Source: Halobacteriovoraceae bacterium (lineage in GTDB: Bacteria > Bdellovibrionota > Bacteriovoracia > Bacteriovoracales > Bacteriovoracaceae). From it: 64,000 nucleotides of DNA. Below, piece by piece: positions 48,819-64,000 of the stretch. The translations under genes and the position numbers were made by a program. The stretch's first letter is position 1. Each line of letters starts with the position of its first letter. Under the pieces are notes generated by a model that had not been told where the DNA came from, made no database searches, and saw only the letters and a program-made list of their open reading frames with translations. The stretch lies in the NCBI GenBank assembly GCA_963719505.1, contig CAVRCF010000005.1, positions 1,199,643-1,263,642 on the forward strand, read 5' to 3'.

Positions 48819-50078
48819 ATGAACTACTACGCAATTGATTTTGGTACATCCAATTCTTTAATAAATTTTATTTCAGATTCAAAAGAGATCATTCGTATTC
48901 CCATGGAAGAGGATGGTCAATATATTCTCAGATCTCTTATCTTTACAACTGATCAAAGAAGCTGGTTTTTTGGAGAGCAGGCCATTAAAGAATATACTGA
49001 AAATGATGGAGAAGGTCGCTTTTTGCGCTCCCTTAAGAAATTTCTAGCTGACCCTGGTTTTAAAGGATCTGAAATCCACAATAAAAAGTATTCAATTGAA
49101 GCTATGATTGCTGTTTTTCTAAGAGAGATGAAAAGAAGGGCTGATCTGTTCACAGGAAAAAATATAGAAAATGTTGTTATGGGGCGTCCCGCAAAATACT
49201 CAACTAATAAGGACCATGATCAGCTTGCTGAAGATAGGATGCGTAAGGCTTGTCAACTTGCTGGTTTTAAAACAATTCACTTTTGTCCTGAGCCACTGGC
49301 CGCAGGTCTCGATTTCGATAGTGAAAATAAGAAAAAGAAAATCGTTCTCATCGCGGATTTTGGAGGAGGGACCTCAGACTTTACTCTCATGCAACTCCAC
49401 AGCGGACAATATACTCAAGATGATATTTTGGGTTTGTCGGGTATCTACAAAGCCGGAGATTCACTGGATGGAGAGATGATGCACAAATTTATCTCTAAAC
49501 ACTTTGGCTCAAATTTTAGCTTTAAACTACCAATGGGTGATCAAACTCTTTCATTTCCAAGAGCTCTTCTAAAAAAGATTTGCTCCCCCGCCCATATAAC
49601 TCACTTAAGAGAGAAAGACACTTGGAACTATTTAAAGACCATTCATCCTTTCGCCAAAGACGAACAAAGCAGACGTCAACTAAATCAACTCTTCGCTCTT
49701 ATTGAATGGCAACTGGGCTACACACTTTTCCATCAAATTGAGAAATCAAAAATTGAAATCTGCTCGAATGATTTAACTTCTCACACCTTTAGATTTTCTC
49801 ACCATGAAATTGATATTGAACAGGTCATTGATAAAAAAGAGTACAATGAAGCTATGAGTAGTATTGTGGAGGAAATTATCGAGACAATGTTGGATGTTTT
49901 TAACCAATCAGACATTTTACCCAAGCAAGTTGATGAAGTTGTTCTCACAGGAGGAACAGCTCAGTTCACTCAAATCCAGAATCGTCTCGCTGAAATATTT
50001 GGCAAAGAAAAGCTTATAGAACACGATATTTACCAGTCTGTCGTCGGAGGTCTTTCTCAGTACGCAGTCCTCCTCTAA
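48819..50078 (+). CDS. Hsp70-family protein, YegD-like
   Basis: IDFGTSNS, GRP, EPLAA, DFGGGTSDF, LTGGT; no substrate-binding domain. Confidence 0.88.
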   Translation: MNYYAIDFGTSNSLINFISDSKEIIRIPMEEDGQYILRSLIFTTDQRSWFFGEQAIKEYTENDGEGRFLRSLKKFLADPGFKGSEIHNKKYSIEAMIAVFLREMKRRADLFTGKNIENVVMGRPAKYSTNKDHDQLAEDRMRKACQLAGFKTIHFCPEPLAAGLDFDSENKKKKIVLIADFGGGTSDFTLMQLHSGQYTQDDILGLSGIYKAGDSLDGEMMHKFISKHFGSNFSFKLPMGDQTLSFPRALLKKICSPAHITHLREKDTWNYLKTIHPFAKDEQSRRQLNQLFALIEWQLGYTLFHQIEKSKIEICSNDLTSHTFRFSHHEIDIEQVIDKKEYNEAMSSIVEEIIETMLDVFNQSDILPKQVDEVVLTGGTAQFTQIQNRLAEIFGKEKLIEHDIYQSVVGGLSQYAVLL

Positions 50079-51927: not shown

Positions 51928-52947
51928 TTAGATCGTCATCGTGACTTTTGAAAGAAACCTCGGGTTATCAGGATCAAGATCTCTGGCCTTTGCTAGGCTT
52001 TCAACCATTAAGTAAAAACTATAAATAAGATTAAGGGTATCCAAATAGAGATGACAATTTGGTGCGTAGAGGCAATCTTCATCACTGATATATTTATCAC
52101 TTATGATACAAACTTTAGCTCCTCGTTTTCTCAAATCTAAGCCCGTCTCAATCAAACTCTCCTGCTCGACTCCTCTCAGAGCAAATATTAAAACGGGAAA
52201 GTCATCTCCAACGACGGCCTGAGGACCGTGCTTAATTTCCGCACTCGAAAAAGATTCGGCCTGGATATGACATGTCTCTTTCAACTTTAAGGCCGCCTCG
52301 TGAGCGATAGTAAATCCAAGACCTCGCCCCACGATCATCATCTGGTCACAGTCTGTTAACATCTCTACAATTTCAGGCCAGTGACAAGAGAGTTGTGTGG
52401 GCAAATGTTCTGGAGCTTTCTCAATCGCACCTAAAAATTCACTATCTTCAGCAACCTGTGCCACTAAAGAGGCTCCTGCATATAACGATGCGATGAAAGA
52501 CTTGGTAGCGGCAACAGAAGTTTCCTCTCCAGCACAAAGAGGATAAACAAGAGTCGCTTCACTTGCTAAAGGTGAATTTGTATCATTAACAAAAGCCAAA
52601 GAAGTAGACTTTTGTTTATTCACAAGCCCAACCAGAGAAAGAATATCTGGACTCTTACCTGACTGAGAAATTGCGACTCCAATTGCTTTTGAAAAATCAA
52701 GGTCAACTCTATGAACTGAAACAAGGGAAGGGCTCAGGGACATCGATAATTTTTTAAGCTCTAATGAAGCGAGATAATTAAAGTATGCAGCTGCATGATC
52801 ACTACTTCCCCTAGCAAAAGTTGCAAAGCAAAATGGGTTTATCTTTTTTATCTGATCAGAAATTTGAATTCTAACTTTCGAATTTTGGGACCACTGTTTT
52901 TTTAAGACATCTTTTGTTTGTAAAGTCTCTTCAAGCATTTTTGTCAT
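51928..52947 (-). CDS. SIS-domain glucosamine-6-phosphate deaminase (NagB-II type)
   Basis: ARGSSDHAA, ISQSGKSPD, SVAATKS, EAALKLKET, HGP. Confidence 0.85.
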   Translation of the reverse strand: MTKMLEETLQTKDVLKKQWSQNSKVRIQISDQIKKINPFCFATFARGSSDHAAAYFNYLASLELKKLSMSLSPSLVSVHRVDLDFSKAIGVAISQSGKSPDILSLVGLVNKQKSTSLAFVNDTNSPLASEATLVYPLCAGEETSVAATKSFIASLYAGASLVAQVAEDSEFLGAIEKAPEHLPTQLSCHWPEIVEMLTDCDQMMIVGRGLGFTIAHEAALKLKETCHIQAESFSSAEIKHGPQAVVGDDFPVLIFALRGVEQESLIETGLDLRKRGAKVCIISDKYISDEDCLYAPNCHLYLDTLNLIYSFYLMVESLAKARDLDPDNPRFLSKVTMTI

Positions 52948-54029
52948 AAACTTCTCCCCTGTAAATAAACATCAAGGAGATCAAAGTGCTTATCTAAAAC
53001 TAAGATATCCGCTCTCCTTCCGACCTTTAAGCACCCTCTGTCGTTTGCACCAAGTAAATCGGCTTGTATTTGAGAGAGTCTTTTTGATGACTCCACCATC
53101 GACAGATCAAGACTGAGAATATTCTTTAAGGCTTGAATCATTGTCAGAGAACTTCCGGCCAAAGTTCCATCGGCAAGTCGTATTCCATTTCCACACTTAT
53201 GCACATCGTGCGTTCCTAGTCGATAGGTTCCATCTGGCATCCCACAAGCCGCTGTTGCATCTGTCACAAAGTAAAGTTTAGGTATGGATCTTAATGCAAC
53301 TTTTATAGCACCAGGGTGAACATGTAAAAGATCAGGAATAAGTTCGGCACACTGAGCATGAGCGAGACTTGCTCCCGTGAGTCCAGGAGCTCTATGATGA
53401 AAGCCTGACATAGCGTTAAAGACGTGAGTGACACTGTCAGCCTTCTTTTCAAGAAACTCTTTTGACGTTTCATAGTCAGCATTTGAATGACCAATTTGAA
53501 TGAGAATATCTCTCTTTTTTAAAACTTGAACTTCGCTCTGTGAAATATTTGATTCAGGGGCAAGAGTAATAATCTTTATGGGTGCAATTTCATGTAAAGA
53601 TAAAACTTCTTCAAGATTAAAGGCCCTTGAAAACGCTGGTTGGGCCCCTAATTTATCAGGCGAAATAAAAGGACCTTCAAGATGAACTCCCAAAATTTTT
53701 GCCTCTGCCTTGGTAGGTGTTTTCATCACACTAGCAATAGCATGAAATATATTTTTAAGTTTCTCTGGAGTATCCGTGAGAGTCGTAGCTAAAAGTGAGG
53801 TTGTTCCATTTTTAGCGTGGCAGGTAAGCATGGTTCTAATTGCTGACTCTCCCTCCATAATATCACATCCCCCTCCCCCGTGAACGTGAAGATCAATAAA
53901 GCCTGGTAAAATCCAACTTTCATTCTCTTTTATTTTTGACACTTTGCTGATGTTTAGAATCTCATCATTAAACTCTATTTCACCATAAAAAGAACTTTCA
54001 CCTGTAACAATATTACCTTTAATTTTCAT
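52944..54029 (-). CDS. nagA: N-acetylglucosamine-6-phosphate deacetylase
   Basis: PGFIDLHVHG, HLEGPF, GHS, THVFNAM, HVHP, VTDA, LAGS. Confidence 0.95.
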   Translation of the reverse strand: MKIKGNIVTGESSFYGEIEFNDEILNISKVSKIKENESWILPGFIDLHVHGGGGCDIMEGESAIRTMLTCHAKNGTTSLLATTLTDTPEKLKNIFHAIASVMKTPTKAEAKILGVHLEGPFISPDKLGAQPAFSRAFNLEEVLSLHEIAPIKIITLAPESNISQSEVQVLKKRDILIQIGHSNADYETSKEFLEKKADSVTHVFNAMSGFHHRAPGLTGASLAHAQCAELIPDLLHVHPGAIKVALRSIPKLYFVTDATAACGMPDGTYRLGTHDVHKCGNGIRLADGTLAGSSLTMIQALKNILSLDLSMVESSKRLSQIQADLLGANDRGCLKVGRRADILVLDKHFDLLDVYLQGRSL

Positions 54030-54891
54030 TTCGACCTTTATCTTTAATCAGCATGAGTGCTCCATCGACTGAGCTTCCGATTCCTGACGTGCATCTTTTT
54101 GAAATATGCTCAGGAAGATGGGGTAAAAACTGCTCTCCCAATTTTCCACACATCACCACCGGTAAAAGCTTCGTTTTATCCAAAGCCTCAATCATCTGTT
54201 CAATATCGGCCAAGGCTTTTTCGATAAGTTCCTTGGCAAACAAGTCTTCATTTTGTACTGAGAAAACTAAAGGAGCTAAAGAGGCATAATCTGTTTGAGT
54301 GGCAAGGCCCAACCATTTTAAAAATTCGTTTGAGCTTTTTCCACATTTTTCTTTTATAAGCTTTGATAGAGGACTCGCTTTCACTCTTCCATCCAAGACC
54401 TTCTCCGTATACCTAACAGATTGGATACCAAGCCAAGACCCGGAAGCTTCGTCTCCAGCGGGATATCCCCAACCAGAAACGCTGTGAATTTTTCCAGAAA
54501 TGTCTTTGCTCATTCCAATGCTTCCAGTTCCCAAAGCAATAATAACTCCAGGATTGTCATTATGAGCACCAAGTAAAGTGGTAAATCCATCGGCTTTAGC
54601 GACAACCTTTGAGAAGCCTGGATTGGCCAAGAGGAATTCTTTTTTCCAACTCGAATTGTTCATCCCGGAGATTCCAGCCCCCAAGTAACATTCACTTAAT
54701 TTAATATCTTTAATACATTCATTTAGAGTTTTAACAATGACCTGCCAAGACTTTTCAACCCCTAGGGATAATGCTGAAGCTGGTCCATTTCCCTGGGTAA
54801 TCAAAGCACCAGTCGTGTCCATGATTTTTAGACGAGTCCCTGTCCCTCCTCCATCAACACCAATATAGTACTTAGCTTTTTTCATACCCAA
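54019..54891 (-). CDS. N-acetylglucosamine kinase (BadF/BadG/BcrA/BcrD ATPase family)
   Basis: GVDGGGTGT, GTGS, GWG..GDEASG; first gene of the nagA operon. Confidence 0.85.
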   Translation of the reverse strand: MGMKKAKYYIGVDGGGTGTRLKIMDTTGALITQGNGPASALSLGVEKSWQVIVKTLNECIKDIKLSECYLGAGISGMNNSSWKKEFLLANPGFSKVVAKADGFTTLLGAHNDNPGVIIALGTGSIGMSKDISGKIHSVSGWGYPAGDEASGSWLGIQSVRYTEKVLDGRVKASPLSKLIKEKCGKSSNEFLKWLGLATQTDYASLAPLVFSVQNEDLFAKELIEKALADIEQMIEALDKTKLLPVVMCGKLGEQFLPHLPEHISKRCTSGIGSSVDGALMLIKDKGRNEN

Positions 54892-55112
54892 TTTTATGAC
54901 CTTCAGTGGTAAAGATCAATAGTATTACTCTACATTATCAGGGATGTCAGACTCGTTGGCGTTTTCAAGATTACTATTGCCTTTCAAATTATTAAGTTTT
55001 TAAATTTTGTAAAATAGTGGACTAAAATATCAAGCTGTTCATCCCTAATAGGACTATATTAATCTAGAAATCAACTCAGTTTTACTTCTGCTAAGAGTCT
55101 TTAAGAAAGGGC

Positions 55113-55961
55113 TCATATATCGAGAGAGTTATTTCCGCTATATAAATCTTGAATCTCTTGGGTTGTCAGTAAGCGGTTCCATAGACCAAACGAATCAAGG
55201 TTCCCTCTAAAACGATCAAGAGCTGGATTTGTGGGATAGCCGTAGCTATTATACCTTTCGCATAATGAAATATAAGTATCACTTGTAGCATATTGGGTAA
55301 CGACGTCTGAAAGAACAAGCGCTCCATCAATGTAGACATTAATAGACCAATTGGGATTTGATCTTTGAAAGCTTACAACCAAGTGGTGCCAATTACTATT
55401 TTGACTACTTATTGTTGTCTTAACCGAGATAGAATCAGAAACATCAACGGAGTCTTGTCGACTAATGACACTAAGGGTATCAACAGTAGCATTAGAGCAA
55501 GAAACTGGAGATCTAGTAACAACCTCAAGCCCCCGCGTTGAGAAGATCGAATTGTCAAAAGAAGAAGTACAAGTGGTCCCCTTTTGAACCCAAATAGAAA
55601 AAGAAAAACTGCTTAGTGAACTTTTTGAAAGTGTATCTACAGATTTAACCATCTGGTTTGTTCCACCAATTCCAGTTGCATTTTGACAGCTAATCCCTTG
55701 TGCATGCTGTCCAGAAACTCTTCCCATTCCTCCCGCCATTGTCTCTAAGTCAGTGAGTTGTTTTGAGAAAACCTGACCGACAAACGGTTGATTTGAACTG
55801 ATGGACTCTTCAAACCGCCAAAATCCGAATATTTCGTCTGTAAGCTCTAAATCTGTATTGCTATCAGATCGATTTTGAAAGGCTTCATCAATATTTGCCT
55901 TAGATCCAGTAACGGCTTCTATAAAATTACAACCAGCTGTGAGAGAGAGCACCAAAACCAC
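55113..55961 (-). CDS. LamG-like jelly-roll lipoprotein (start uncertain)
   Basis: TAGC lipobox-like; FSFSIW, WHHLVV, YIDG, FRGNLD..GLWNR.LT..EI..LY. Confidence 0.7.
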   Translation of the reverse strand: MVLVLSLTAGCNFIEAVTGSKANIDEAFQNRSDSNTDLELTDEIFGFWRFEESISSNQPFVGQVFSKQLTDLETMAGGMGRVSGQHAQGISCQNATGIGGTNQMVKSVDTLSKSSLSSFSFSIWVQKGTTCTSSFDNSIFSTRGLEVVTRSPVSCSNATVDTLSVISRQDSVDVSDSISVKTTISSQNSNWHHLVVSFQRSNPNWSINVYIDGALVLSDVVTQYATSDTYISLCERYNSYGYPTNPALDRFRGNLDSFGLWNRLLTTQEIQDLYSGNNSLDI

Positions 55962-56150
55962 ACAAATATATCTAGTGGTAGACGATAGGAAATCATTTAT
56001 TTTCCTTCTATAAATCTTTTGAAACTTTAAGAAGATTATAGCAGTGAAAATTATTTATCAGGAATTTTTAATTTTAGTAAATATCTGCCTTAAATGTAGA
56101 TCTGCTTAGTTGCACCAAAAAGAAAAAGACCGCCTAACGGACTAAAAGAA

Positions 56151-56843
56151 TCAGCGATTTGAAGGTAAAGCAATAATTGCTTGGTAAAGCTCTTCAAGTC
56201 GAGAGATCGGATCAGTTGACTGAAGGATTTGTTGCATTTTGAACTCTTGGAGTCGTAAAAAGCGAAAGAGCTTGAAACTAAAATCATTCACAGATTTTTC
56301 TCGAGAAAGCTCGCTTATTTCCTCACTTGCTTCAACTTTTTGTAAAGCAAGTTGATCTTTTAAAAAATTTATAATGAGATCTTTTTGTTTAACGACCCTC
56401 TCATTAGCATTTGAAAACTCCAACTCGAAAGCATCACGATATTCCTCACACATCCCAATCTTGTAAGGCTCATTCTGTATGATGTTCACAATTCTAAAGC
56501 GTTTGAGCATATGAATAGAAACGAGATAGCGCCCATCCTGCGTTTTTTCAGTTATATCAACTGGGCCTGCGCTAAAGATATCCTCGGGTTTATAAGTTGA
56601 AAGATTTTGTTGGTAGAGTAAATAAGCTTCATCAATAGAATTTGCTCTTGTGCTTATACTTTTTGCAAATCGTTCTATACTCTGAGTATGGCATACACCA
56701 AGAAGCTTGTTTCTATCGACACAGTCTTGAATCATTTGCCGATACCGTGGCTCAAAGACGTGCAAAGGCACAATAGTTTGTGGGAAGTTTACAGATCCGG
56801 GGATGGGAAATAGAGCAATTTCGTAAAGACCATTATTATTCAT
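56151..56843 (-). CDS. Lon N-terminal substrate-binding domain protein
   Basis: LFPI...FP...PLHVFEPRYRQMI...DGRY. Confidence 0.85.
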   Translation of the reverse strand: MNNNGLYEIALFPIPGSVNFPQTIVPLHVFEPRYRQMIQDCVDRNKLLGVCHTQSIERFAKSISTRANSIDEAYLLYQQNLSTYKPEDIFSAGPVDITEKTQDGRYLVSIHMLKRFRIVNIIQNEPYKIGMCEEYRDAFELEFSNANERVVKQKDLIINFLKDQLALQKVEASEEISELSREKSVNDFSFKLFRFLRLQEFKMQQILQSTDPISRLEELYQAIIALPSNR

Positions 56844-57194
56844 ACATCCTTTATAACATTTATATCTTAGACATTTAATAAATGCTTTTGTCTGTCTAAG
56901 AAAATTTTAGGAGGTCTACAATGAAGCTAGATCTTGTTTTGCATATTCCAGCTTGTAATTTGTAGCGGAGCAATTAGACTCCAAAACGTTGAATTATAGC
57001 TGCGATTATAAGGATAGAAAAACGAGGCACCACAACCGTCTCCCCTTTTATTTTAAATTGAATACCTATTCCCTTCCAAAAATCTGATTGTTGAAAAAAA
57101 GGTGGGGAGCATTAGGAGTTATAAGGCTACACCTTGCAGCATAAATCTAAGATGAGGGCTTTTTATTTGCTTCATTTCTCGGTAAAATTAATGA

Positions 57195-58286
57195 ATGAAA
57201 AGAAGAAGCTTTCTAACATTTTTATTCCTACTCAGCCCTATGACTTGGCTAAGTGGATGCAAAAACTGGTTTTATAAAACTGAACAAAAGAGAGAAAAAA
57301 TGAAATTAACTCCAATCGACTTTCAATGGCCAACACTTGACCCTTTCTTGTTTTGTGTCCACCATTTTGACCACTATCCAACGGGAAACGATCAACATGG
57401 TTTAGATGCTAAGCATTTTCTGGGCAGAAATATGGGCTCTGATTTTATGCCGAAGGACGGCTTTAGAATTTATCATGGCCAAGAGATACCAGGTTTTCCA
57501 GTTCATCCACATCGTGGGTTTGAAACCATCACAATTGTGAGGAAGGGCTACGTGGATCATGCCGATTCACTTGGAGCTGCTGGAAGATATGGTGAAGGAG
57601 ATGTACAGTGGCTAACTGCGGGGTCAGGTATTCAGCACTCAGAGATGTTTCCCCTACTACACAAAGATAAAGAGAATACTCTTGAATTGTTTCAGATATG
57701 GATTAATTTACCAAAAGCAAATAAAATGGTTCCAGCTGATTTTAAAATGCTTTGGTCAGAGAAAATTCCAAAAATTAAAAAAGATAACTATGAAGTCACA
57801 CTTATCTCTGGTGAATTTGAAGATCAGACTTTTTATCAAGCACCTAAAGATAGTTGGGCTGCAAAGCCTGAGAATAATGTGAATATATTATTAGTAAACT
57901 TAAAAGAAGGCGCTGAATTCAAATATCCTAAAGCTAAACAGACTACGAATCGGGTGCTCTATTTCTTTGGTGGAGACAAAATCATAGTTAATGGAGAAGA
58001 AATAGCACAGAAAAGTGCACTCTACCCTGACTCTGACCAAGACTTAGTCCTAAAGACAAGTGGTAACTGTGAAGTCTTAATACTTGAAGCCAAGCCGATC
58101 GCTGAACCAGTTGTTCAGCATGGACCTTTTGTTATGAATTCAAAAGCTGAAATCGTTCAAACCTTTGAGGACTATCAAAAAACACAATTTGGAGGATGGA
58201 GTTGGGATCGCACAGATATGATTCACGGAAGTGAAACGAATCGCTTTGCAAAATACCCAAACGGTAAAATTGAAAAGCCAATTTAG
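57195..58286 (+). CDS. Pirin family protein with Tat/lipoprotein-like N-terminal extension
   Basis: DPFLFCVHH, HPHRGFET, AGSGIQHSE, FQIW.NLP, GPFVMN; N-terminus KRRSFL...LSGC. Confidence 0.9.
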   Translation: MKRRSFLTFLFLLSPMTWLSGCKNWFYKTEQKREKMKLTPIDFQWPTLDPFLFCVHHFDHYPTGNDQHGLDAKHFLGRNMGSDFMPKDGFRIYHGQEIPGFPVHPHRGFETITIVRKGYVDHADSLGAAGRYGEGDVQWLTAGSGIQHSEMFPLLHKDKENTLELFQIWINLPKANKMVPADFKMLWSEKIPKIKKDNYEVTLISGEFEDQTFYQAPKDSWAAKPENNVNILLVNLKEGAEFKYPKAKQTTNRVLYFFGGDKIIVNGEEIAQKSALYPDSDQDLVLKTSGNCEVLILEAKPIAEPVVQHGPFVMNSKAEIVQTFEDYQKTQFGGWSWDRTDMIHGSETNRFAKYPNGKIEKPI

Positions 58287-58357
58287 TTTTAAGTATATAA
58301 AGATGAGATTTTAATTATAAGACTCCTAAAAGTCTCCATAGGAATTAAAAACTGTGG

Positions 58358-59887
58358 TTAGTTTAAAATATATTTAAGAGAAAAATCCTCTCCCGATATT
58401 TTTCGGAATAAATCTTCAAACTTATACAATCCAGAAGGTTGAATGACTTTTTCTTTTAAGAATTTTCCAAAGCCCTTGGTGTCTTCAAAAATTGATTTAA
58501 TTCCATGATCTCGACAATAAACTTCTTTAAACATTTCACAAGTGACGTCTCCCATAAAGTAATTATGCAAGTAAATAGGATGTGTTGTGTGATGAATTAA
58601 GTACCCCCAAGGAGGCTCCCCTACAAAAGAATCGATCGTCCCAAGTTCTGTCATATACTCAATATTTAACTGATTTATATCATCGAGATTTTTCAGATCT
58701 TTTCTATAAAGGTCTTGGTCGAATAATATTGTCTGAATACTTGTTAGTGAACTTTTTTTGTTCCAATCACATAGCCGTTTAAACTCAGTGCTCGCATTTT
58801 TATCTTTAAAAAATTGTGAATAAAAAAGTTCTTCTTTTTGCATCCCTCCAAAAAGATTGGCTAAGCCTTCAGATATAATGCCACTTATGCCCCAGTTAAG
58901 AATCGTGTCCTCAGGATCTATATTATTATAATGATTAGCGTGTCCTGCTTCATGAAGAAGAACATTGTAATGAGAATACTGGTTATCTATATTGGCCAGA
59001 ATTCGACAGTCTTTCCCTAACTCTACAGTAAACTGATAGCCCCATTCTGACTTATTTTTTCTAGGAAAAACATCGAAAGTAATATTTTGTTTTGTTAAAT
59101 CAAAATCAAATTTTTTATAAAGATCACAAAGGTATGAATAGTAGTCAATCATATTCACCTCCTTCTTATTGTATGAGCATATTTGATTAGCAATATATCT
59201 CTCATCCCAAGGTTCTAAGTTTTCTTTTTTTAGAAACTTTTCAGCATATCTTTGACTGTCCTTTTTTAAAGAAGGTAAAAATTCTTTAAGTTGTTTTTCC
59301 CAGTCTTTAAAGAGTGATGGACTAAGTTCATTCACTTCAAGCTCCATCGCTACAAAGTCACTCGCACCATACAGCCTTGCATATTCTTTTCTAAGATTAA
59401 TGAGTTCAATAAATCCACCGTCCACAAGAGGCTTGTTGACTTGAGCTCGAGAACGCCAGGCCTTTTCTCGATTTTTTTCATCAGGACTGTTTGAAATAAT
59501 TTTACTTATATCAGTAGCGGTATGTTCTATACCGTCAATTTTAGATCTATGTGTGTTTAGAACACCAGACAATTTAGTCGTAAGGGTTGAAATTCTTTCA
59601 TCTAATTCATTTAATTCTCTAGATAAGTGATACGGCTTAAAACTATTGAAAAGTAATTCCACACAACGTTTATCATGTTCATTTAAATTTTTGTCTTGAA
59701 AGGACTTTATAAGATCAAAATTCTTTTTATCTTTATATATTTCTTTGATTTTCTTTAAAGAGTCTTCAACACCAAAATCATCCCCTGTTGTATAGTACGT
59801 CCAGTTTCTTTTACTACAATCAGTAGATTTTTCCTTGATACTATTGGCAAGTTCAATTAATGGCTGTATTTCTAATTTTGAATTCAT
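58358..59887 (-). CDS. Gluzincin metallopeptidase (M3/M2-like)
   Basis: HEAGH plus downstream SEG; HPIYLHNY. Confidence 0.8.
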   Translation of the reverse strand: MNSKLEIQPLIELANSIKEKSTDCSKRNWTYYTTGDDFGVEDSLKKIKEIYKDKKNFDLIKSFQDKNLNEHDKRCVELLFNSFKPYHLSRELNELDERISTLTTKLSGVLNTHRSKIDGIEHTATDISKIISNSPDEKNREKAWRSRAQVNKPLVDGGFIELINLRKEYARLYGASDFVAMELEVNELSPSLFKDWEKQLKEFLPSLKKDSQRYAEKFLKKENLEPWDERYIANQICSYNKKEVNMIDYYSYLCDLYKKFDFDLTKQNITFDVFPRKNKSEWGYQFTVELGKDCRILANIDNQYSHYNVLLHEAGHANHYNNIDPEDTILNWGISGIISEGLANLFGGMQKEELFYSQFFKDKNASTEFKRLCDWNKKSSLTSIQTILFDQDLYRKDLKNLDDINQLNIEYMTELGTIDSFVGEPPWGYLIHHTTHPIYLHNYFMGDVTCEMFKEVYCRDHGIKSIFEDTKGFGKFLKEKVIQPSGLYKFEDLFRKISGEDFSLKYILN

Positions 59888-59946
59888 ACCAAATCCTCTC
59901 AGGACAATTTTTGATATTTTCTATCATCATCTCTTATTATAGTTTC

Positions 59947-60354
59947 CTAATCAGGGAACCCGTCAAATCCTTGCAATTCCTCTAATTTCTCTTCCCAGTT
60001 AGCCTTGCTTCCTACAAATAAGTGGGCGTTTGGTTTTATATCGACTGGAACATCTAAACTGCCTGCTGGTACCACAAGTAATTTACCTGCATTTTGAATA
60101 ATTGGGAGTGCTGAACCACATTCTGAACAAAAGCTCTTAGCGTGCCTTGTCTTTGGCAAAGTAAAAGTCTTTACAAAACTATCCCCTAATAGCCAAGTGA
60201 ACTTTGAATTTGTTGAGAATAAATTTGCTGCATGAGCAGAACCAGTATCCTTCTGGCAAAACTTACAATGACAAAGAAAAAAACTTTGAAATTCTCCCTC
60301 AACCTCAAACTTTACTTTCTCACAAAGACAGGATCCTAAGTGTTTAGTGTTCAT
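59947..60354 (-). CDS. GFA family Zn-binding protein
   Basis: GSCLC, CHCKFCQK, FCSECGS. Confidence 0.9.
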   Translation of the reverse strand: MNTKHLGSCLCEKVKFEVEGEFQSFFLCHCKFCQKDTGSAHAANLFSTNSKFTWLLGDSFVKTFTLPKTRHAKSFCSECGSALPIIQNAGKLLVVPAGSLDVPVDIKPNAHLFVGSKANWEEKLEELQGFDGFPD

Positions 60355-60374
60355 ATTGTAATTCCTATTAGTTG

Positions 60375-60424
60375 GTTTGAGAGTTCATTTTAAGATGGTC
60401 TTCCCAGTTCGTCGACTATCGAAC
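60375..60424. repeat. att-like site 1 (50 bp)
   Basis: GTTTGAGAGTTCATTTTAAGA-TGGT-CTTCCCAGTTCGTCGACTA-TCGAAC. Confidence 0.6.
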
Positions 60425-60442
60425 GGCGACAATGAAAATAAT

Positions 60443-61207
60443 CTAACTTTCTTCATCTCTTAAAGTTAAAATTTCAACACCTGTTTCTGTCACTACTACT
60501 GTATGCTCCCACTGAGCAGAAAGCTTTCCATCTCTTGTCACAACAGTCCAATCATCAGAGAGATGCTTAATCTTTCCCCCACCTTCATTAACCATTGGCT
60601 CAATTGTAAAGACCATTCCCTTTTGAAGCTTTAGTCCCTTACCTTTTTTACCATAGTGGAGAACCTGCGGTTCCTCGTGCATCTCTGCTCCAATCCCGTG
60701 GCCACAATAATCTTTCACTATTGTATATCCATTTCTTAGAGCATGCCTATGGACATGAAAGCCTATGTCTCCCAGAGTATTACCAGGCTTTACCTGCTCA
60801 ATACCTTTCATCAGGCACTCTCTTGTAATTTCACATAATTTTACTGCTTCAGCGCTACACTTACCGACTAAATACATCCGTGAAGTATCTGCAATAAAAC
60901 CATGTTTTTTAACCGTAACATCAAGGTTAACTATATCCCCCTCCTTTAAAATTTCTTTTTCAGAGGGAACACCGTGGCAAACGACATTGTTAATAGATGA
61001 ATTTAAAGCAAATTGAAAATCGTATTGTCCAATAGATGATGGAATAGCATCGTAGTCTTCTCTGATCCACTTTTCAGCAAGCTTTGCTATCTTATATGTA
61101 GAAACACCAGCTTTTACTTCTGGAATCAACCGAGTGAGGATTTCGCCTGCAATTTGCCCTGTCTTTCGATAAAGCTCTATGTCTTGATCCGACTTTAAAT
61201 TAATCAT
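60443..61207 (-). CDS. map: Type I methionine aminopeptidase
   Basis: VVCHGVP, DVTV, ADTS, CGHGIG..MHEEP, FTIEPM, SAQWEHT. Confidence 0.96.
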   Translation of the reverse strand: MINLKSDQDIELYRKTGQIAGEILTRLIPEVKAGVSTYKIAKLAEKWIREDYDAIPSSIGQYDFQFALNSSINNVVCHGVPSEKEILKEGDIVNLDVTVKKHGFIADTSRMYLVGKCSAEAVKLCEITRECLMKGIEQVKPGNTLGDIGFHVHRHALRNGYTIVKDYCGHGIGAEMHEEPQVLHYGKKGKGLKLQKGMVFTIEPMVNEGGGKIKHLSDDWTVVTRDGKLSAQWEHTVVVTETGVEILTLRDEES

Positions 61208-61423
61208 TTCTTTTTAGTCTTCTTAACTATTTCAGAAACTCTCAACTTACTATATTTAAAAAGTAAGTCGCGTATCTCTTCATAGTTTATAGATGGATGC
61301 ATCTCTGCCAGCATTCCTATCTTTGATCCAGTGCTCGGCTTGTGAATTTAAAGAACGATCAAATACTCTTGAAGCTTCTCTAAGTTCATCATGAATTTCT
61401 TCTGATATTTTTACGATTCCCAT
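61204..61423 (-). pseudogene. ParD-like ribbon-helix-helix protein with a +1 frameshift near 61323
   Basis: MGIVKISEEIHDELR...RSLNSQAEHWIK, then IGMLAEMHP...KK* after removing one A; ATGA overlap with map. Confidence 0.75.
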
Positions 61424-61473
61424 TTTTATACATTATATAGCAAAACGTATATCGTCAATTAATAATGGAATCA

Positions 61474-61523
61474 GTTCGAGAGTTGGTTTTTAAGTGGTGC
61501 CCCGACGTCTCCGGTTATCGAAA
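61474..61523. repeat. att-like site 2 (50 bp)
   Basis: GTTCGAGAGTTGGTTTTTAAG-TGGT-GCCCCGACGTCTCCGGTTA-TCGAAA. Confidence 0.75.
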
Positions 61524-61531
61524 CAAAATTC

Positions 61532-62014
61532 TTAATCTTTGTTATTCAAGCCGATCTTCTTACGCTTTTTTGGGCTCAGCCTAACTTCTTCTAAGCTATC
61601 CAGTCTTTCAAAAACGACCTTAAACACCTATGTCACATTTTGCTCCAAACTATCAACTTTTCTATCTGTCCTCTCTTCAAGAGCATAAAAGCTTCTAAGT
61701 TTTGTAAAAATTCTCATAATTGAGATATTTACCTTAATCGCCTGCTTACTATTTAGAACTGATGACAGCATAGCGACTCCATTTTCTGTAAAAACAAGAG
61801 GTTGCTTCTGTTTCCCACCTCTTCCTACTTTTGATAGTTGAAACATAAAGTCATCTGGAAATCGATCTATATTCCTTCTAACCTGTTCGTTAAGTCTTTT
61901 TGTTTCAACTCCATAAAGTTTTGCCAAGTCACTATCAAGCATTACATTTTGTCCGCGAATAACATAAATCATGTTTTGAATTTGATCTAATTGAATTTCC
62001 ATTTTTATCCCCAT
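61532..62014 (-). pseudogene. ORF6N (KilA-N-like) DNA-binding protein with an in-frame TAG
   Basis: IRGQNVMLDSDLA.LYGVETKRLNEQVRRN..RFP.DFMFQL, FTENGVAMLSSVL; TAG at 61628-61630, then the frame continues to ...PKKRKKIGL. Confidence 0.8.
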
Positions 62015-62102
62015 TTTAATTAACAGAGCTTAATAAGTGAAATGCATAGTTCTTAAAAGTAATTGATTATAAGAAAGTGAGATATCTCATTTGAGAAATG
62101 AA

Positions 62103-62183
62103 TTTTTAACAAAAAAAAGCCTCGTGGGTTAGACGAAGCTTTTTGATAAATATTTGGTGCCTCGATGTCTCCGGTTATCGAAC
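62103..62183. repeat. Terminator arm plus tRNA-3'-like arm (att-like site 3)
   Basis: 62103-62152 repeats at 63950-64000; 62155-62182 matches 61495-61522 at 26 of 28 nt. Confidence 0.85.
62111..62144 (-). terminator. Intrinsic terminator, copy 1
   Basis: Minus strand AAAAAGCTTCGT-CTAACCC-ACGAGGCTTTTTTTT. Confidence 0.85.
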
Positions 62184-62762
62184 TGCAGTGCTTACAAGTC
62201 TCTGATAATACGTCTCATGAAAAAGTTTTGAGTATGTCTTGGTATTTCTATACTGCCCCTTCTCAATTGCATTTTCTCGAGCAGTTCCCTCGTAAACATA
62301 ATTACATCGTTCAGGAACACCAGCAGACCTTTCATTTAGGTCAGAACATTTAATCTGAACTCTATGAAAGCCAATTTCAAATAGATGCTTTTCTAGCATT
62401 AGGACTGCCTCAGACATAAAACCTTTACCTTCAAACTTCCCTAAAATCCAATATCCGAGCTCCGCGCAATTATCACTCCACTGAATTGAATGAACTCCTA
62501 TATTACCCATATATAAATTACTGTCTCTTTGAAAGATCCCATAGTCAAATAATGTGAATGCATCCCATTTCTCATGAGTTGATCTTATGTATTTTTCTTC
62601 ATCTTCTACATTATTGATGAACTCTACCCAAGGAAGGAACCGATCTAGACGCTCTCTATCCTCTTGGACATAGTCGAACATTTTTGCTGCCAATTGAATG
62701 TCATGCTTTTTGATATAGACTCGGTCGCCAACAATTTTTTCTGATAAAATTCTTTGATCCAT
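62175..62762 (-). CDS. RimJ/RimL-type GNAT acetyltransferase
   Basis: FLPW, AELGYWI...EGKGFMSEAV, N.RSAGVPERC.Y.YEG; start taken at MDQRI. Confidence 0.88.
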   Translation of the reverse strand: MDQRILSEKIVGDRVYIKKHDIQLAAKMFDYVQEDRERLDRFLPWVEFINNVEDEEKYIRSTHEKWDAFTLFDYGIFQRDSNLYMGNIGVHSIQWSDNCAELGYWILGKFEGKGFMSEAVLMLEKHLFEIGFHRVQIKCSDLNERSAGVPERCNYVYEGTARENAIEKGQYRNTKTYSKLFHETYYQRLVSTAVR

Positions 62763-62782
62763 AAAAGTACCTTCAATTTTTG

Positions 62783-62830
62783 GTTCGAGAGTACATTTTA
62801 GCGGTGTAAATCTGTTGAGGAATTTCAAAC
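62783..62830. repeat. att-like site 4 (48 bp, more diverged)
   Basis: GTTCGAGAGTACATTTTAG-CGGT-GTAAATCTGTTGAGGAATT-TCAAAC. Confidence 0.55.
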
Positions 62831-62903
62831 TGAAACACTCATCCGAACATAACTACCACCACGTGTAGATAATCTAAAACGATAAACCTAATCGAGTTAA
62901 GAA

Positions 62904-63782
62904 CTAGTCCCTTACTCTTTTCAACAGGCTCTCATCACCAGTGGCTAAATCAGTAAATCTCACAGTGTTAGGAGAAAAAAAATTCATTTTGTACTTACTG
63001 CCGTTAAATAAAATTAGATTGCCCTTTATTTCATGAAGCTGACCTTCCTTACCAAATGAGACAACTTCTGATTCTCCACTTAGCTCATCTATCTTATTCC
63101 ACGAACCAGTCAGGACTTTAGGAATAAAGTCGAGATAGGTGTCTAATCCAACCTGCTTATAGGTACAAGAACTTCTTGAAATTGAACGAGTTATTATTTC
63201 ATCGTACTCTTCAGATCTAATATTTTCACTTGTTAATGTATATTTAGTATTAAAGGGATCGTGAGAGATATCTATCTTTTTTGACTCTTGAGTCGACTCT
63301 TCACCATCAATCGTTCTCTTAACAGTCACTACATGACCATCGATTAACTTCTTTATTATCTCAGCCTTACTTTCTCTAAAGACAGGCGTTGCCTCTCTTT
63401 CATTTATACCTCTAGACTCACTTGAGACGACGAGAGTATCATTATCAGTAAATTCTAAAGAACTTATACCAATATCAAAACCTGTGACAGTCTCAAACCC
63501 ATTAAAGAATTCGAACTGTGAGTTGTATGTAATATTTAGGCCACTATTAGAAGAGTTCTCAATGTACTTTCCAATTGTAAACGAAGTCTTTCTAGTTGTT
63601 TTACCATCCCATGTCGAAATAAAAGTGTTAACACACTCGAAATCGTAAACCCTAGACCCATCGAATGATTGTTCAAAATGATAATCCTTGTAGCTAGAAA
63701 TCTTTGTTTCAAAACCCATAAACTCTTGAGAATAGGCTTGAGCACCTAAAATTAAAACAAACAAACCAAATTGAAACTTCAT
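62904..63782 (-). CDS. Secreted hypothetical protein, beta-rich
   Basis: AAGGAG RBS; signal peptide MKFQFGLFVLILGAQAYS. Confidence 0.75.
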   Translation of the reverse strand: MKFQFGLFVLILGAQAYSQEFMGFETKISSYKDYHFEQSFDGSRVYDFECVNTFISTWDGKTTRKTSFTIGKYIENSSNSGLNITYNSQFEFFNGFETVTGFDIGISSLEFTDNDTLVVSSESRGINEREATPVFRESKAEIIKKLIDGHVVTVKRTIDGEESTQESKKIDISHDPFNTKYTLTSENIRSEEYDEIITRSISRSSCTYKQVGLDTYLDFIPKVLTGSWNKIDELSGESEVVSFGKEGQLHEIKGNLILFNGSKYKMNFFSPNTVRFTDLATGDESLLKRVRD

Positions 63783-63949
63783 AAATCTCCTTAATTCAAA
63801 CTTTAGGAAAAATTACGAAAATATTAATGTGGTGTAAACCCACTCCAAAGATCTTGTATTTTTTATACAACCTTCCCGTCAGAGGCGACGCCTGAATAGA
63901 TGACTAGACCTATTTAAAAAATTGATCAAAGTGGGTGTATAATCGTGAT

Positions 63950-64000
63950 TTTTTAACAAAAAAAAAGCCTCGTGGGTTAGACGAAGCTTTTTGATAAATA
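63950..64000. repeat. Second copy of the terminator arm, cut by the window edge
   Basis: Identical to 62103-62152 except A9 versus A8. Confidence 0.9.

Follow-up and report, generated by a model that had tools for sequence, protein, structure and literature searches.

What gathers a row of short, unrelated genes, all on one strand and parted by copies of one short sequence, at the end of a bacterial contig? The question arises from a 64-kb stretch of a Halobacteriovoraceae genome (assembly GCA_963719505.1; hereafter the window), which forms the end of contig C5, with base 64000 as the last base of that contig. The host genome has a size of 3.69 Mb in five contigs, a G+C content of 37% and an assembly completeness of 83.5%. 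Pfam searches of the encoded proteins delineated five minus-strand units that span positions 59947-63782 of the window. No recombinase is encoded among them, and units flanked by sites in this manner resemble a cis-mobilizable element (CIME), the mobilization being putative. The five units and the four sites that part them had been recognized in an earlier, sequence-only reading, and all lie where that reading placed them. It proposed that single genes had been captured one after another at the 3' end of a tRNA, giving an analogue of an integron driven by a different enzyme, perhaps a large serine recombinase (LSR). Our analysis favors a related explanation, to which we assign a probability of about 0.7: the array is made of stacked LSR elements, together with derivatives that lack the LSR, at the 3' end of a tRNA-Phe gene.

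Read on the strand of the genes, a site begins with Box A, TTCGATA followed by 12 variable bases and GGGGCACCA, which copies the end of tRNA-Phe from the T-loop to CCA and has five additional bases immediately 3' of TTCGA. After CCA comes either a terminator hairpin (sites 3 and 5) or directly Box B (sites 1, 2 and 4), a second conserved stretch that terminates in CTCTCGAAC; about 20 bases separate Box B from the start codon of the gene that follows. All of the sites are on the minus strand of the window. Site 2 (61474-61523) comprises Box A at 61495-61523 and Box B at 61474-61492, and site 1 (60375-60424) a degenerate Box A at 60396-60424 and Box B at 60375-60392; neither has a terminator. 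In site 3 (62114-62183), Box A (62155-62183) holds the stop codon of a GNAT gene and is followed by a terminator hairpin (62144-62114). The terminator had been thought to replace the left arm of this site, but a Box-B-like stretch is still present 3' of the hairpin. Site 4 (62783-62830) has a good Box B and a Box A that has decayed beyond detection. A fifth site (63950-64000) is cut by the contig end; it carries the terminator of site 3 (63992-63962, a 21-mer repeat), and its Box A would fall past 64000.

Two classes of left end were seen among the units. In the first, a recombinase remnant comes next; in the second, found in at least nine genera, a terminator is followed by a promoter-like TTTACA-17-TAAAAT and by Box B, and a gene in the direction of the tRNA begins 17-21 bases further on. 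Sites 1, 2 and 4 of the window belong to the second class minus its hairpin, and are 50-bp near-palindromes of the form GTTCGA...TCGAAC. They might be read as complete 50-bp attP sites: the symmetry is real, yet in other genomes a 36-base terminator splits the two halves of this left end, so the palindromic symmetry may be functional or may be a by-product of deletion.

The tRNA-like arms of sites 2 and 3 have no match in the 3.69-Mb genome other than each other (two hits, with up to six mismatches allowed). The final 12 bases of site 2 are identical to the end of the host's own tRNA-Phe (C3:420103-420178), which bears out the tRNA-like half noticed earlier, and the 27-mer of site 2 also occurs in seven other genomes of the family. 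A Box A profile was built from 77 related sites and run over the host genome. It returned site 2 with E = 2.4e-8 and site 3 with E = 2.6e-7, while site 1, with E = 0.59, was the fifth best match genome-wide and had the right position and strand. There were no significant matches outside the array in the host genome, and the motif is thus not scattered. For the other half of the site, GAGAGT-N3-4-TTTTA occurs four times in the window, three of these at sites 1, 2 and 4, compared with a mean of 0.18 in shuffled sequences, none of which (0/100) reached four. The bare Box B 10-mer alone is no more frequent in the window than expected by chance.

The hairpins at sites 3 and 5 are terminator-like and the Box-B-type module has a promoter-like stretch, as would be expected if the sites were expression punctuation, that is, terminator-promoter modules spread by duplication without recombination. 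We regard this as very improbable. The sites are confined to the flank of tRNA-Phe, with zero significant matches elsewhere in the genome; they bound exchanged units and are linked to an LSR, as described below; and a promoter scan of the window found 8 candidates where shuffled sequences gave 13.2.

Two weak Box-A-like profile matches lie off the array (G000:C1:366918-366943 and C2:334609-334637; E of 0.11 and 0.2). Conservation among the 77 sites also reaches outside the search pattern, from 13 bases upstream of TTCGA through CCA. The 13 upstream bases show a period of three, with conserved positions at -13, -10, -7, -4 and -1; their counterparts in the window are 61524-61536 and 62184-62196. 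Judged from the sequence, this pattern fits coding, either of a short C-terminal peptide on the gene strand ending ...AVR-stop, as the GNAT protein of the window does, or of a recombinase tail on the opposite strand.

To place the sites in a wider context we searched the family. Allowing at most one mismatch, we found TTCGATA-N12-GGGGCACC in 93 of its 237 genomes, which represent 41 of 69 genera. The reversed pattern, used as a control, matched in nine genomes of the family, and a spacing control with N13 gave chance-like matches only, in 20 of the 237 genomes and none in the host genome. Where a contig also holds tRNA-Phe, all of its sites lie downstream of the gene and are oriented like it (10/10 contigs), so that the link to a tRNA suggested at the outset holds in the relatives, and in one direction only. 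The profile gave 82 hits over the stretches sampled, none of them on the opposite strand; with each stretch oriented by its site majority, this count is informative mainly for stretches with at least two sites.

Contig C3 ends 790 bp from the host's own tRNA-Phe; in between come, in this order, a terminator, a Box-B-like stretch, a single gene and a degenerate site. The window in turn ends inside a site whose orientation is opposite to that behind the C3 tRNA-Phe. Since C3 and C5 both end in array, with opposite orientations, they are most simply read as neighbors whose facing ends are separated by a gap, and the array in the window is very probably the far part of a variable island downstream of tRNA-Phe. 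No tRNA gene was detected in the whole window, no Rfam family was found within 55000-64000 at E values up to 1, and the repeat at the window end has no continuation at any other contig end of the same assembly.

The geometry of Box A is informative as to the type of enzyme. Where Rutherford et al. 2013 (PMC3783163) describe the layout of serine-integrase sites, the inner motif is at an equal position in attP and attB, and the outer motif, that of the zinc ribbon domain, is 5 bp closer to the center in attB than in attP. The distance from TTCGA to the end of CCA is 23 bases in tRNA-Phe and 28 in Box A, with the inner part (...TCGGGGCACCA) common to both, and an element at tRNA-Leu in genome G023 has an equal 5-base offset of TTCGA. 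Because TTCGA is 5 bases further out in Box A, Box A resembles an attP-type left half-site and the tRNA end an attB-type one; in sequence geometry the offset equals the published attP/attB shift. In genome G042, Box A departs from tRNA-Phe at position -9 counted from the CCA end, and the acceptor-like part of Box A mismatches the host tRNA in G042, G014 and G013. Box A therefore derives from the element and is not a displaced tRNA end.

One unit, found behind the tRNA in G094 and behind a Box A in G003, is common to the two genomes from CCA onward. Comparison of the junctions suggests a crossover within the last eight bases of the tRNA gene (GGGCACCA) or at the next base, and half-site spacing likewise predicts a crossover in GGGCACCA; a single comparison, that of G100 with G101, is at odds with this placement. 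A crossover in the T-loop, with TTnAGTAT as the outer motif (like the Listeria motif in PMC3783163), was also considered; the mismatch between the host tRNA and the acceptor-like part of Box A in G042, G014 and G013 led us to reject it.

LSRs are present in 138 of the 237 family genomes and in 2 of 14 control genomes. In two relatives, G042 and G014, an LSR of 554-559 amino acids with Resolvase and Recombinase domains lies directly behind tRNA-Phe and is convergent with it (L094:7703-9379 and L101:13774-15435, respectively), and this is the enzyme class at which the sequence-only reading had guessed. The LSR frame has no stop before the tRNA and reads through the terminator and the entire tRNA-Phe gene on the opposite strand; in the excised element it would enter Box A instead. 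The first Box A lies 17 kb further along in G042 and 30 kb in G014, and the intervening DNA encodes a small resolvase, an SSB, regulators and restriction/defence functions, the elements containing Resolvase-domain proteins of 203 and 200 amino acids.

With the G042 LSR as query, 20 of the 237 genomes gave matches at an E value of 1e-30 or better. All six homologues with at least 58% identity (three full-length and three fragments, from five genera) are beside tRNA-Phe, and 11 of 15 more distant homologues are beside other tRNAs. In five of the 12 best Recombinase-domain loci, a tRNA or tmRNA lies no more than 1.5 kb away. Six arrays, those of G117, G246, G094 (twice), G003, G118 and G002, contain remnants of the LSR 3' end behind either the tRNA or a Box A, which indicates that many units originated as recombinase-bearing elements.

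Partial tRNA repeats most commonly originate from tyrosine integrases, both by general knowledge and in the part of the tycheposon preprint that treats such repeats (bioRxiv 10.1101/2020.12.28.424599), and the sites could in principle be remnants of phage-type tyrosine integrase islands at the tRNA T-loop. The host genome does contain 10 matches to the tyrosine recombinase family PF00589. However, none of the 10 is in the window, none was found near the arrays of the five well-assembled relatives checked (G127, G117, G094, G118 and G006), the tRNA-like part of Box A mismatches the host tRNA in the three genomes named above, and both the 5-bp offset and the adjacency of the LSR indicate otherwise. 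There is little chance that this is the origin of the sites.

Several further features were noted. Proteins of 150-180 amino acids that consist of a helix-turn-helix (HTH) and the first half of the Recombinase domain, without a catalytic domain, occur in many copies family-wide; examples are G000:C1:55869-56024 (L102:1501-1968) and L008:14989-15444, the latter inside the G002 array. A 15-20-base stretch containing GGTTCGAGAGTAC lies about 145 bases after the tRNA or site in G042, G014, G094 and G003. The GGTTCGAGAGTAC stretch sits in the 3' coding end of the recombinase, in an orientation opposite to that of Box B in the window, and has 15 bases in common with site 4 (window 62783-62800). Full LSR elements and larger units carry cargo of phage-defence type, including methylases with nucleases, GmrSD, a HamA-helicase pair and type III restriction-like genes (L100 and L101 in G014, L094 and L095 in G042, and L077 in G087).

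Upstream of tRNA-Phe, genes for pyruvate kinase, a QueG-like protein and a hydrolase are conserved across genera, whereas the downstream content varies; among genomes of one genus, synteny (76-78% identity over 13.7 kb) breaks off 8-39 bases past CCA. Unit content differs between genomes, which supports the earlier reading. The cargo includes GFA, GNAT, glyoxalase, cupin, GrpB and MerR genes as well as toxin-antitoxin pairs, and ORF6N genes are very frequent. Many arrays have an ORF6N unit immediately upstream of a Box A. The copy in the window has DNA homology to units in 12 other genomes, and in G007, G088 and G101 this homology reaches to 3-17 bases from the CCA end of the site in both genomes. 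Other units are shared as well. A four-gene HTH/SLT unit comes straight after the tRNA in G094 and lies between two sites in G013 and G003; the ParD-map unit of the window is 84% identical in DNA to its counterpart in G002 and 71% to that in G117; and the GFA unit shares 86% DNA identity with one that lies between two sites in G101, a genome of another genus, compared with a cross-genus core gene identity of 64-69%.

In 15 of 154 downstream homology blocks, the block end is at most 10 bases away from the CCA end of a site in both genomes; shifted positions (200 replicates) gave a mean of 0.02 and a maximum of 1. These block ends bear on another explanation, in which the units were moved by homologous recombination only, for example after DNA uptake, between site-plus-terminator modules of 40-80 bp, and the sites are inert scars. 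The modules are sufficiently long and similar within and between genomes for this, the host genome has no LSR, and one boundary, between G100 and G101, lies about 20 bases past CCA in the repeated terminator. The block ends nevertheless cluster 0-10 bases from the CCA end and are not spread over the module, and in relatives this location is taken by intact LSR elements. Homologous recombination alone is accordingly an improbable account of the array, less so than the tyrosine integrase or punctuation readings. A comparison of empty and filled loci in G006, G117 and G118, which belong to one genus, was set aside since beyond the tRNA these genomes have only the terminator module in common, and hence offer no clean test. 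IS3-type transposase genes were observed inside three arrays (L066:7272-8102, L075:1588-1995 and L076:584-1642).

Together these observations suggest how stacked LSR elements could have produced the array. Mobile elements with an LSR specific for the 3' end of tRNA-Phe would insert there, and each insertion would leave a site on the far side whose left half is the attP-type half-site of the element. This half-site would mimic the tRNA from the T-loop to CCA, with its outer TTCGA 5 bp further from the crossover. The tRNA would retain its own sequence and gain the terminator of the element. Later insertions at the tRNA would displace older units outward, and recombinase genes would then be lost, so that small units of one to a few genes remain between co-oriented sites. 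The units in the window may be fossils, or else passengers that can be moved by a recombinase supplied in trans.

A number of observations weigh against this model. The host assembly has no match to the Resolvase domain (PF00239), although it is only 83.5% complete and a gap adjoins the array; the host genome has only a 177-amino-acid partial open reading frame with a Recombinase domain, on another contig; and no LSR remnant was found in the host's own array. As for the sites, the tRNA-like arm of site 4 was not detected by the 77-site profile, and conservation of the left arm extends over about 41 bases, which exceeds the usual 25-bp half-site. As the contig ends inside a site, we infer the adjacency of the window and tRNA-Phe and do not see it. 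Of the 154 homology blocks, 139 end elsewhere than at sites, ORF6N units make up most of the other 15, and related genomes are not independent. The G100/G101 boundary also fits homologous recombination. Finally, canonical LSRs recombine attP with attB only, and repeated insertion at an occupied tRNA end would therefore need a laxer enzyme or another route.

How far, then, does the analogy with integrons go? The tRNA 3' end, a serine recombinase and successive insertion all find support, but a platform like that of an integron, in which a resident recombinase has an insertion site and a promoter of its own, is absent. The proposal that genes were captured singly is unsupported, because many units of the relatives are decayed recombinase-bearing elements. 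Of greater interest is the possibility that the single-gene mini-units have remained mobile as cassettes, taken up one at a time at tRNA-Phe by a trans-acting LSR, which would make the system a true integron analogue. One-gene units of 0.5-1 kb without an LSR remnant do exist, among them the GFA, GNAT and ORF6N units of the window and the GFA unit of G101, which is about 530 bp long and has a site on either side. Consistent with such cassettes are the Box-B-type left end in at least nine genera, with its promoter-like stretch and gene start 17-21 bases on; the ORF6N mini-units, present twice each in G101 and G088; the 86% identity of the GFA unit across genera; and the integron-like types of cargo (GNAT, glyoxalase, cupin and toxin-antitoxin). 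Besides the lack of a resident recombinase and the many clearly decayed LSR elements, excision between two internal sites is not canonical for an LSR, and the small units could equally be cargo that survived deletions. Moreover, three public runs, covering only 5-6% of the sampled words, yielded neither circle nor empty junction when compared with the window. On balance, present-day mobility of this kind seems doubtful, if less so than movement by homologous recombination alone.

The same holds for its family-wide form, which we put forward only tentatively: a serine-recombinase counterpart of integrons behind tRNA-Phe, in which mini-cassettes of 0.5-1 kb, with terminator, promoter and Box B on the left and Box A on the right, might be captured, reordered and exchanged across genera by the LSR of larger elements, ORF6N being a selfish or regulatory passenger. 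In one of the public runs (X2), two 151-base contigs were identical to the GFA gene (window 60079-60355) and to nothing else of the 4.1 kb.

The stacked LSR elements favored here belong to a kind of system that is known already, from ssrA-specific islands, the staphylococcal cassette chromosome (SCC) and tycheposon islands. In SCC and SCCmec, Ccr serine-recombinase cassettes are stacked at the 3' end of rlmH, and pseudo-SCC units without a recombinase lie between site repeats. The likeness is one of arrangement, LSR cassettes being stacked on the 3' end of one conserved gene; SCC differs in its target, rlmH, in units of tens of kilobases and in having no tRNA mimicry. Integrons, and clusters of attC sites lacking integron integrases (CALINs), share with the array co-oriented, small and mostly single-gene units, similar cargo and bounding recombination sites. 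Unlike integrons, the system described here has no IntI tyrosine recombinase, attI or common promoter. Its sites run GTT...AAC, with the order GTTCGA ... TCGAAC on both strands, and attC sites run AAC...GTT (RYYYAAC ... GTTRRRY), in agreement with the earlier view that the sites are not attC. The sites of the window would be double-strand-type serine recombinase sites and not folded attC sites.

The closest described system is that of the ssrA-specific islands of Dehalococcoides with the integrase DsiB (McMurdie et al. 2011, PMC3146451). In the passages of that paper that describe the islands, they are arranged in tandem downstream of a tRNA-like gene, with co-oriented repeats of its 3' end between them. 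The present family has the tandem arrangement as well, with several co-oriented repeats of the tRNA-Phe end downstream of the gene and differing cargo; in the host genome the target gene is at the end of another contig. The same passages of PMC3146451 give further parallels: a CcrB-like LSR on the reverse strand beside attL whose reading frame continues across repeat and RNA gene (as in G042 and G014 here), a second serine recombinase, of small size, within the element (here in relatives), an additional motif upstream of the repeat that cannot be aligned to the RNA gene, and units without an integration module, which are discussed there as cis-mobilizable elements. The differences are that the target here is tRNA-Phe and not ssrA, in a marine low-GC family; that the crossover is placed in the T-loop in those passages of PMC3146451 and probably lies in the last eight bases of the gene here; and that the smallest units here are single genes of 0.5-1 kb, with no recombinase in the host genome.

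Tycheposons of Prochlorococcus, in the sections of Hackl et al. that set out their organization (bioRxiv 10.1101/2020.12.28.424599), are likewise anchored at tRNAs, with newcomers pushing older elements outward, partial tRNA copies between elements, and fragmented integrases and partial tRNAs as remnants. According to the same sections, however, 910 of 937 use tyrosine recombinases, many have replication modules and their repeats are true partial tRNAs, as opposed to the look-alike with a 5-bp offset seen here. Our literature search, which was not made by organism name, returned no account of a tRNA-Phe array system in this family.

The arrays show where and how a marine low-GC family keeps and exchanges accessory genes: detoxification enzymes, acetyltransferases and toxin-antitoxin pairs, and phage defence in the full elements. 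They also offer a set of over 80 related, naturally occurring attachment sites together with a tRNA-specific clade of LSRs in which the target tracks the LSR sequence. This set should be useful for studying how serine recombinases read DNA, and the published 5-bp attP/attB rule is legible in it directly from genomes. Should the mini-cassettes prove mobile, they would represent integron-like gene capture built on a different enzyme.

The genes of the window's five units are all encoded on the minus strand. The last recognizable unit is a GFA-family gene at 59947-60354 (PF04828, E = 1.1e-25). A methionine-aminopeptidase-like gene (M24/map) follows at 60443-61207 (PF00557, E = 7e-50), adjoined by a ParD-like antitoxin gene at 61208-61423 that is apparently frameshifted: it is open over 61280-61423 only and matches PF11903 over residues 1-34 only. 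Near 61321 the gene has a base more than its counterparts in G002 and in metagenome contigs from runs X1 and X3, and its frame is cut after 47 codons as a result. Either the gene is a pseudogene or the assembly is wrong at this point. An ORF6N-domain gene occupies 61628-62014 (PF10543, E = 3e-28), and the GNAT acetyltransferase gene, whose final codons are within site 3, occupies 62175-62762 (PF13302, E = 1.3e-18). The fifth unit (62904-63782) encodes a 292-amino-acid protein that matches no Pfam family and whose N-terminus resembles a signal peptide; its gene has no DNA match in the sampled arrays.

To the left of the array, the region 52000-59947 contains genes for lectin-like, Lon-N-like, pirin and M3 peptidase proteins. 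No DNA match to this region was present in three genomes of the same genus, and a match to the G003 array contig appears only at about 49081-50066 of the window. The variable island may therefore extend to the left of 59947, as far as about 50 kb.

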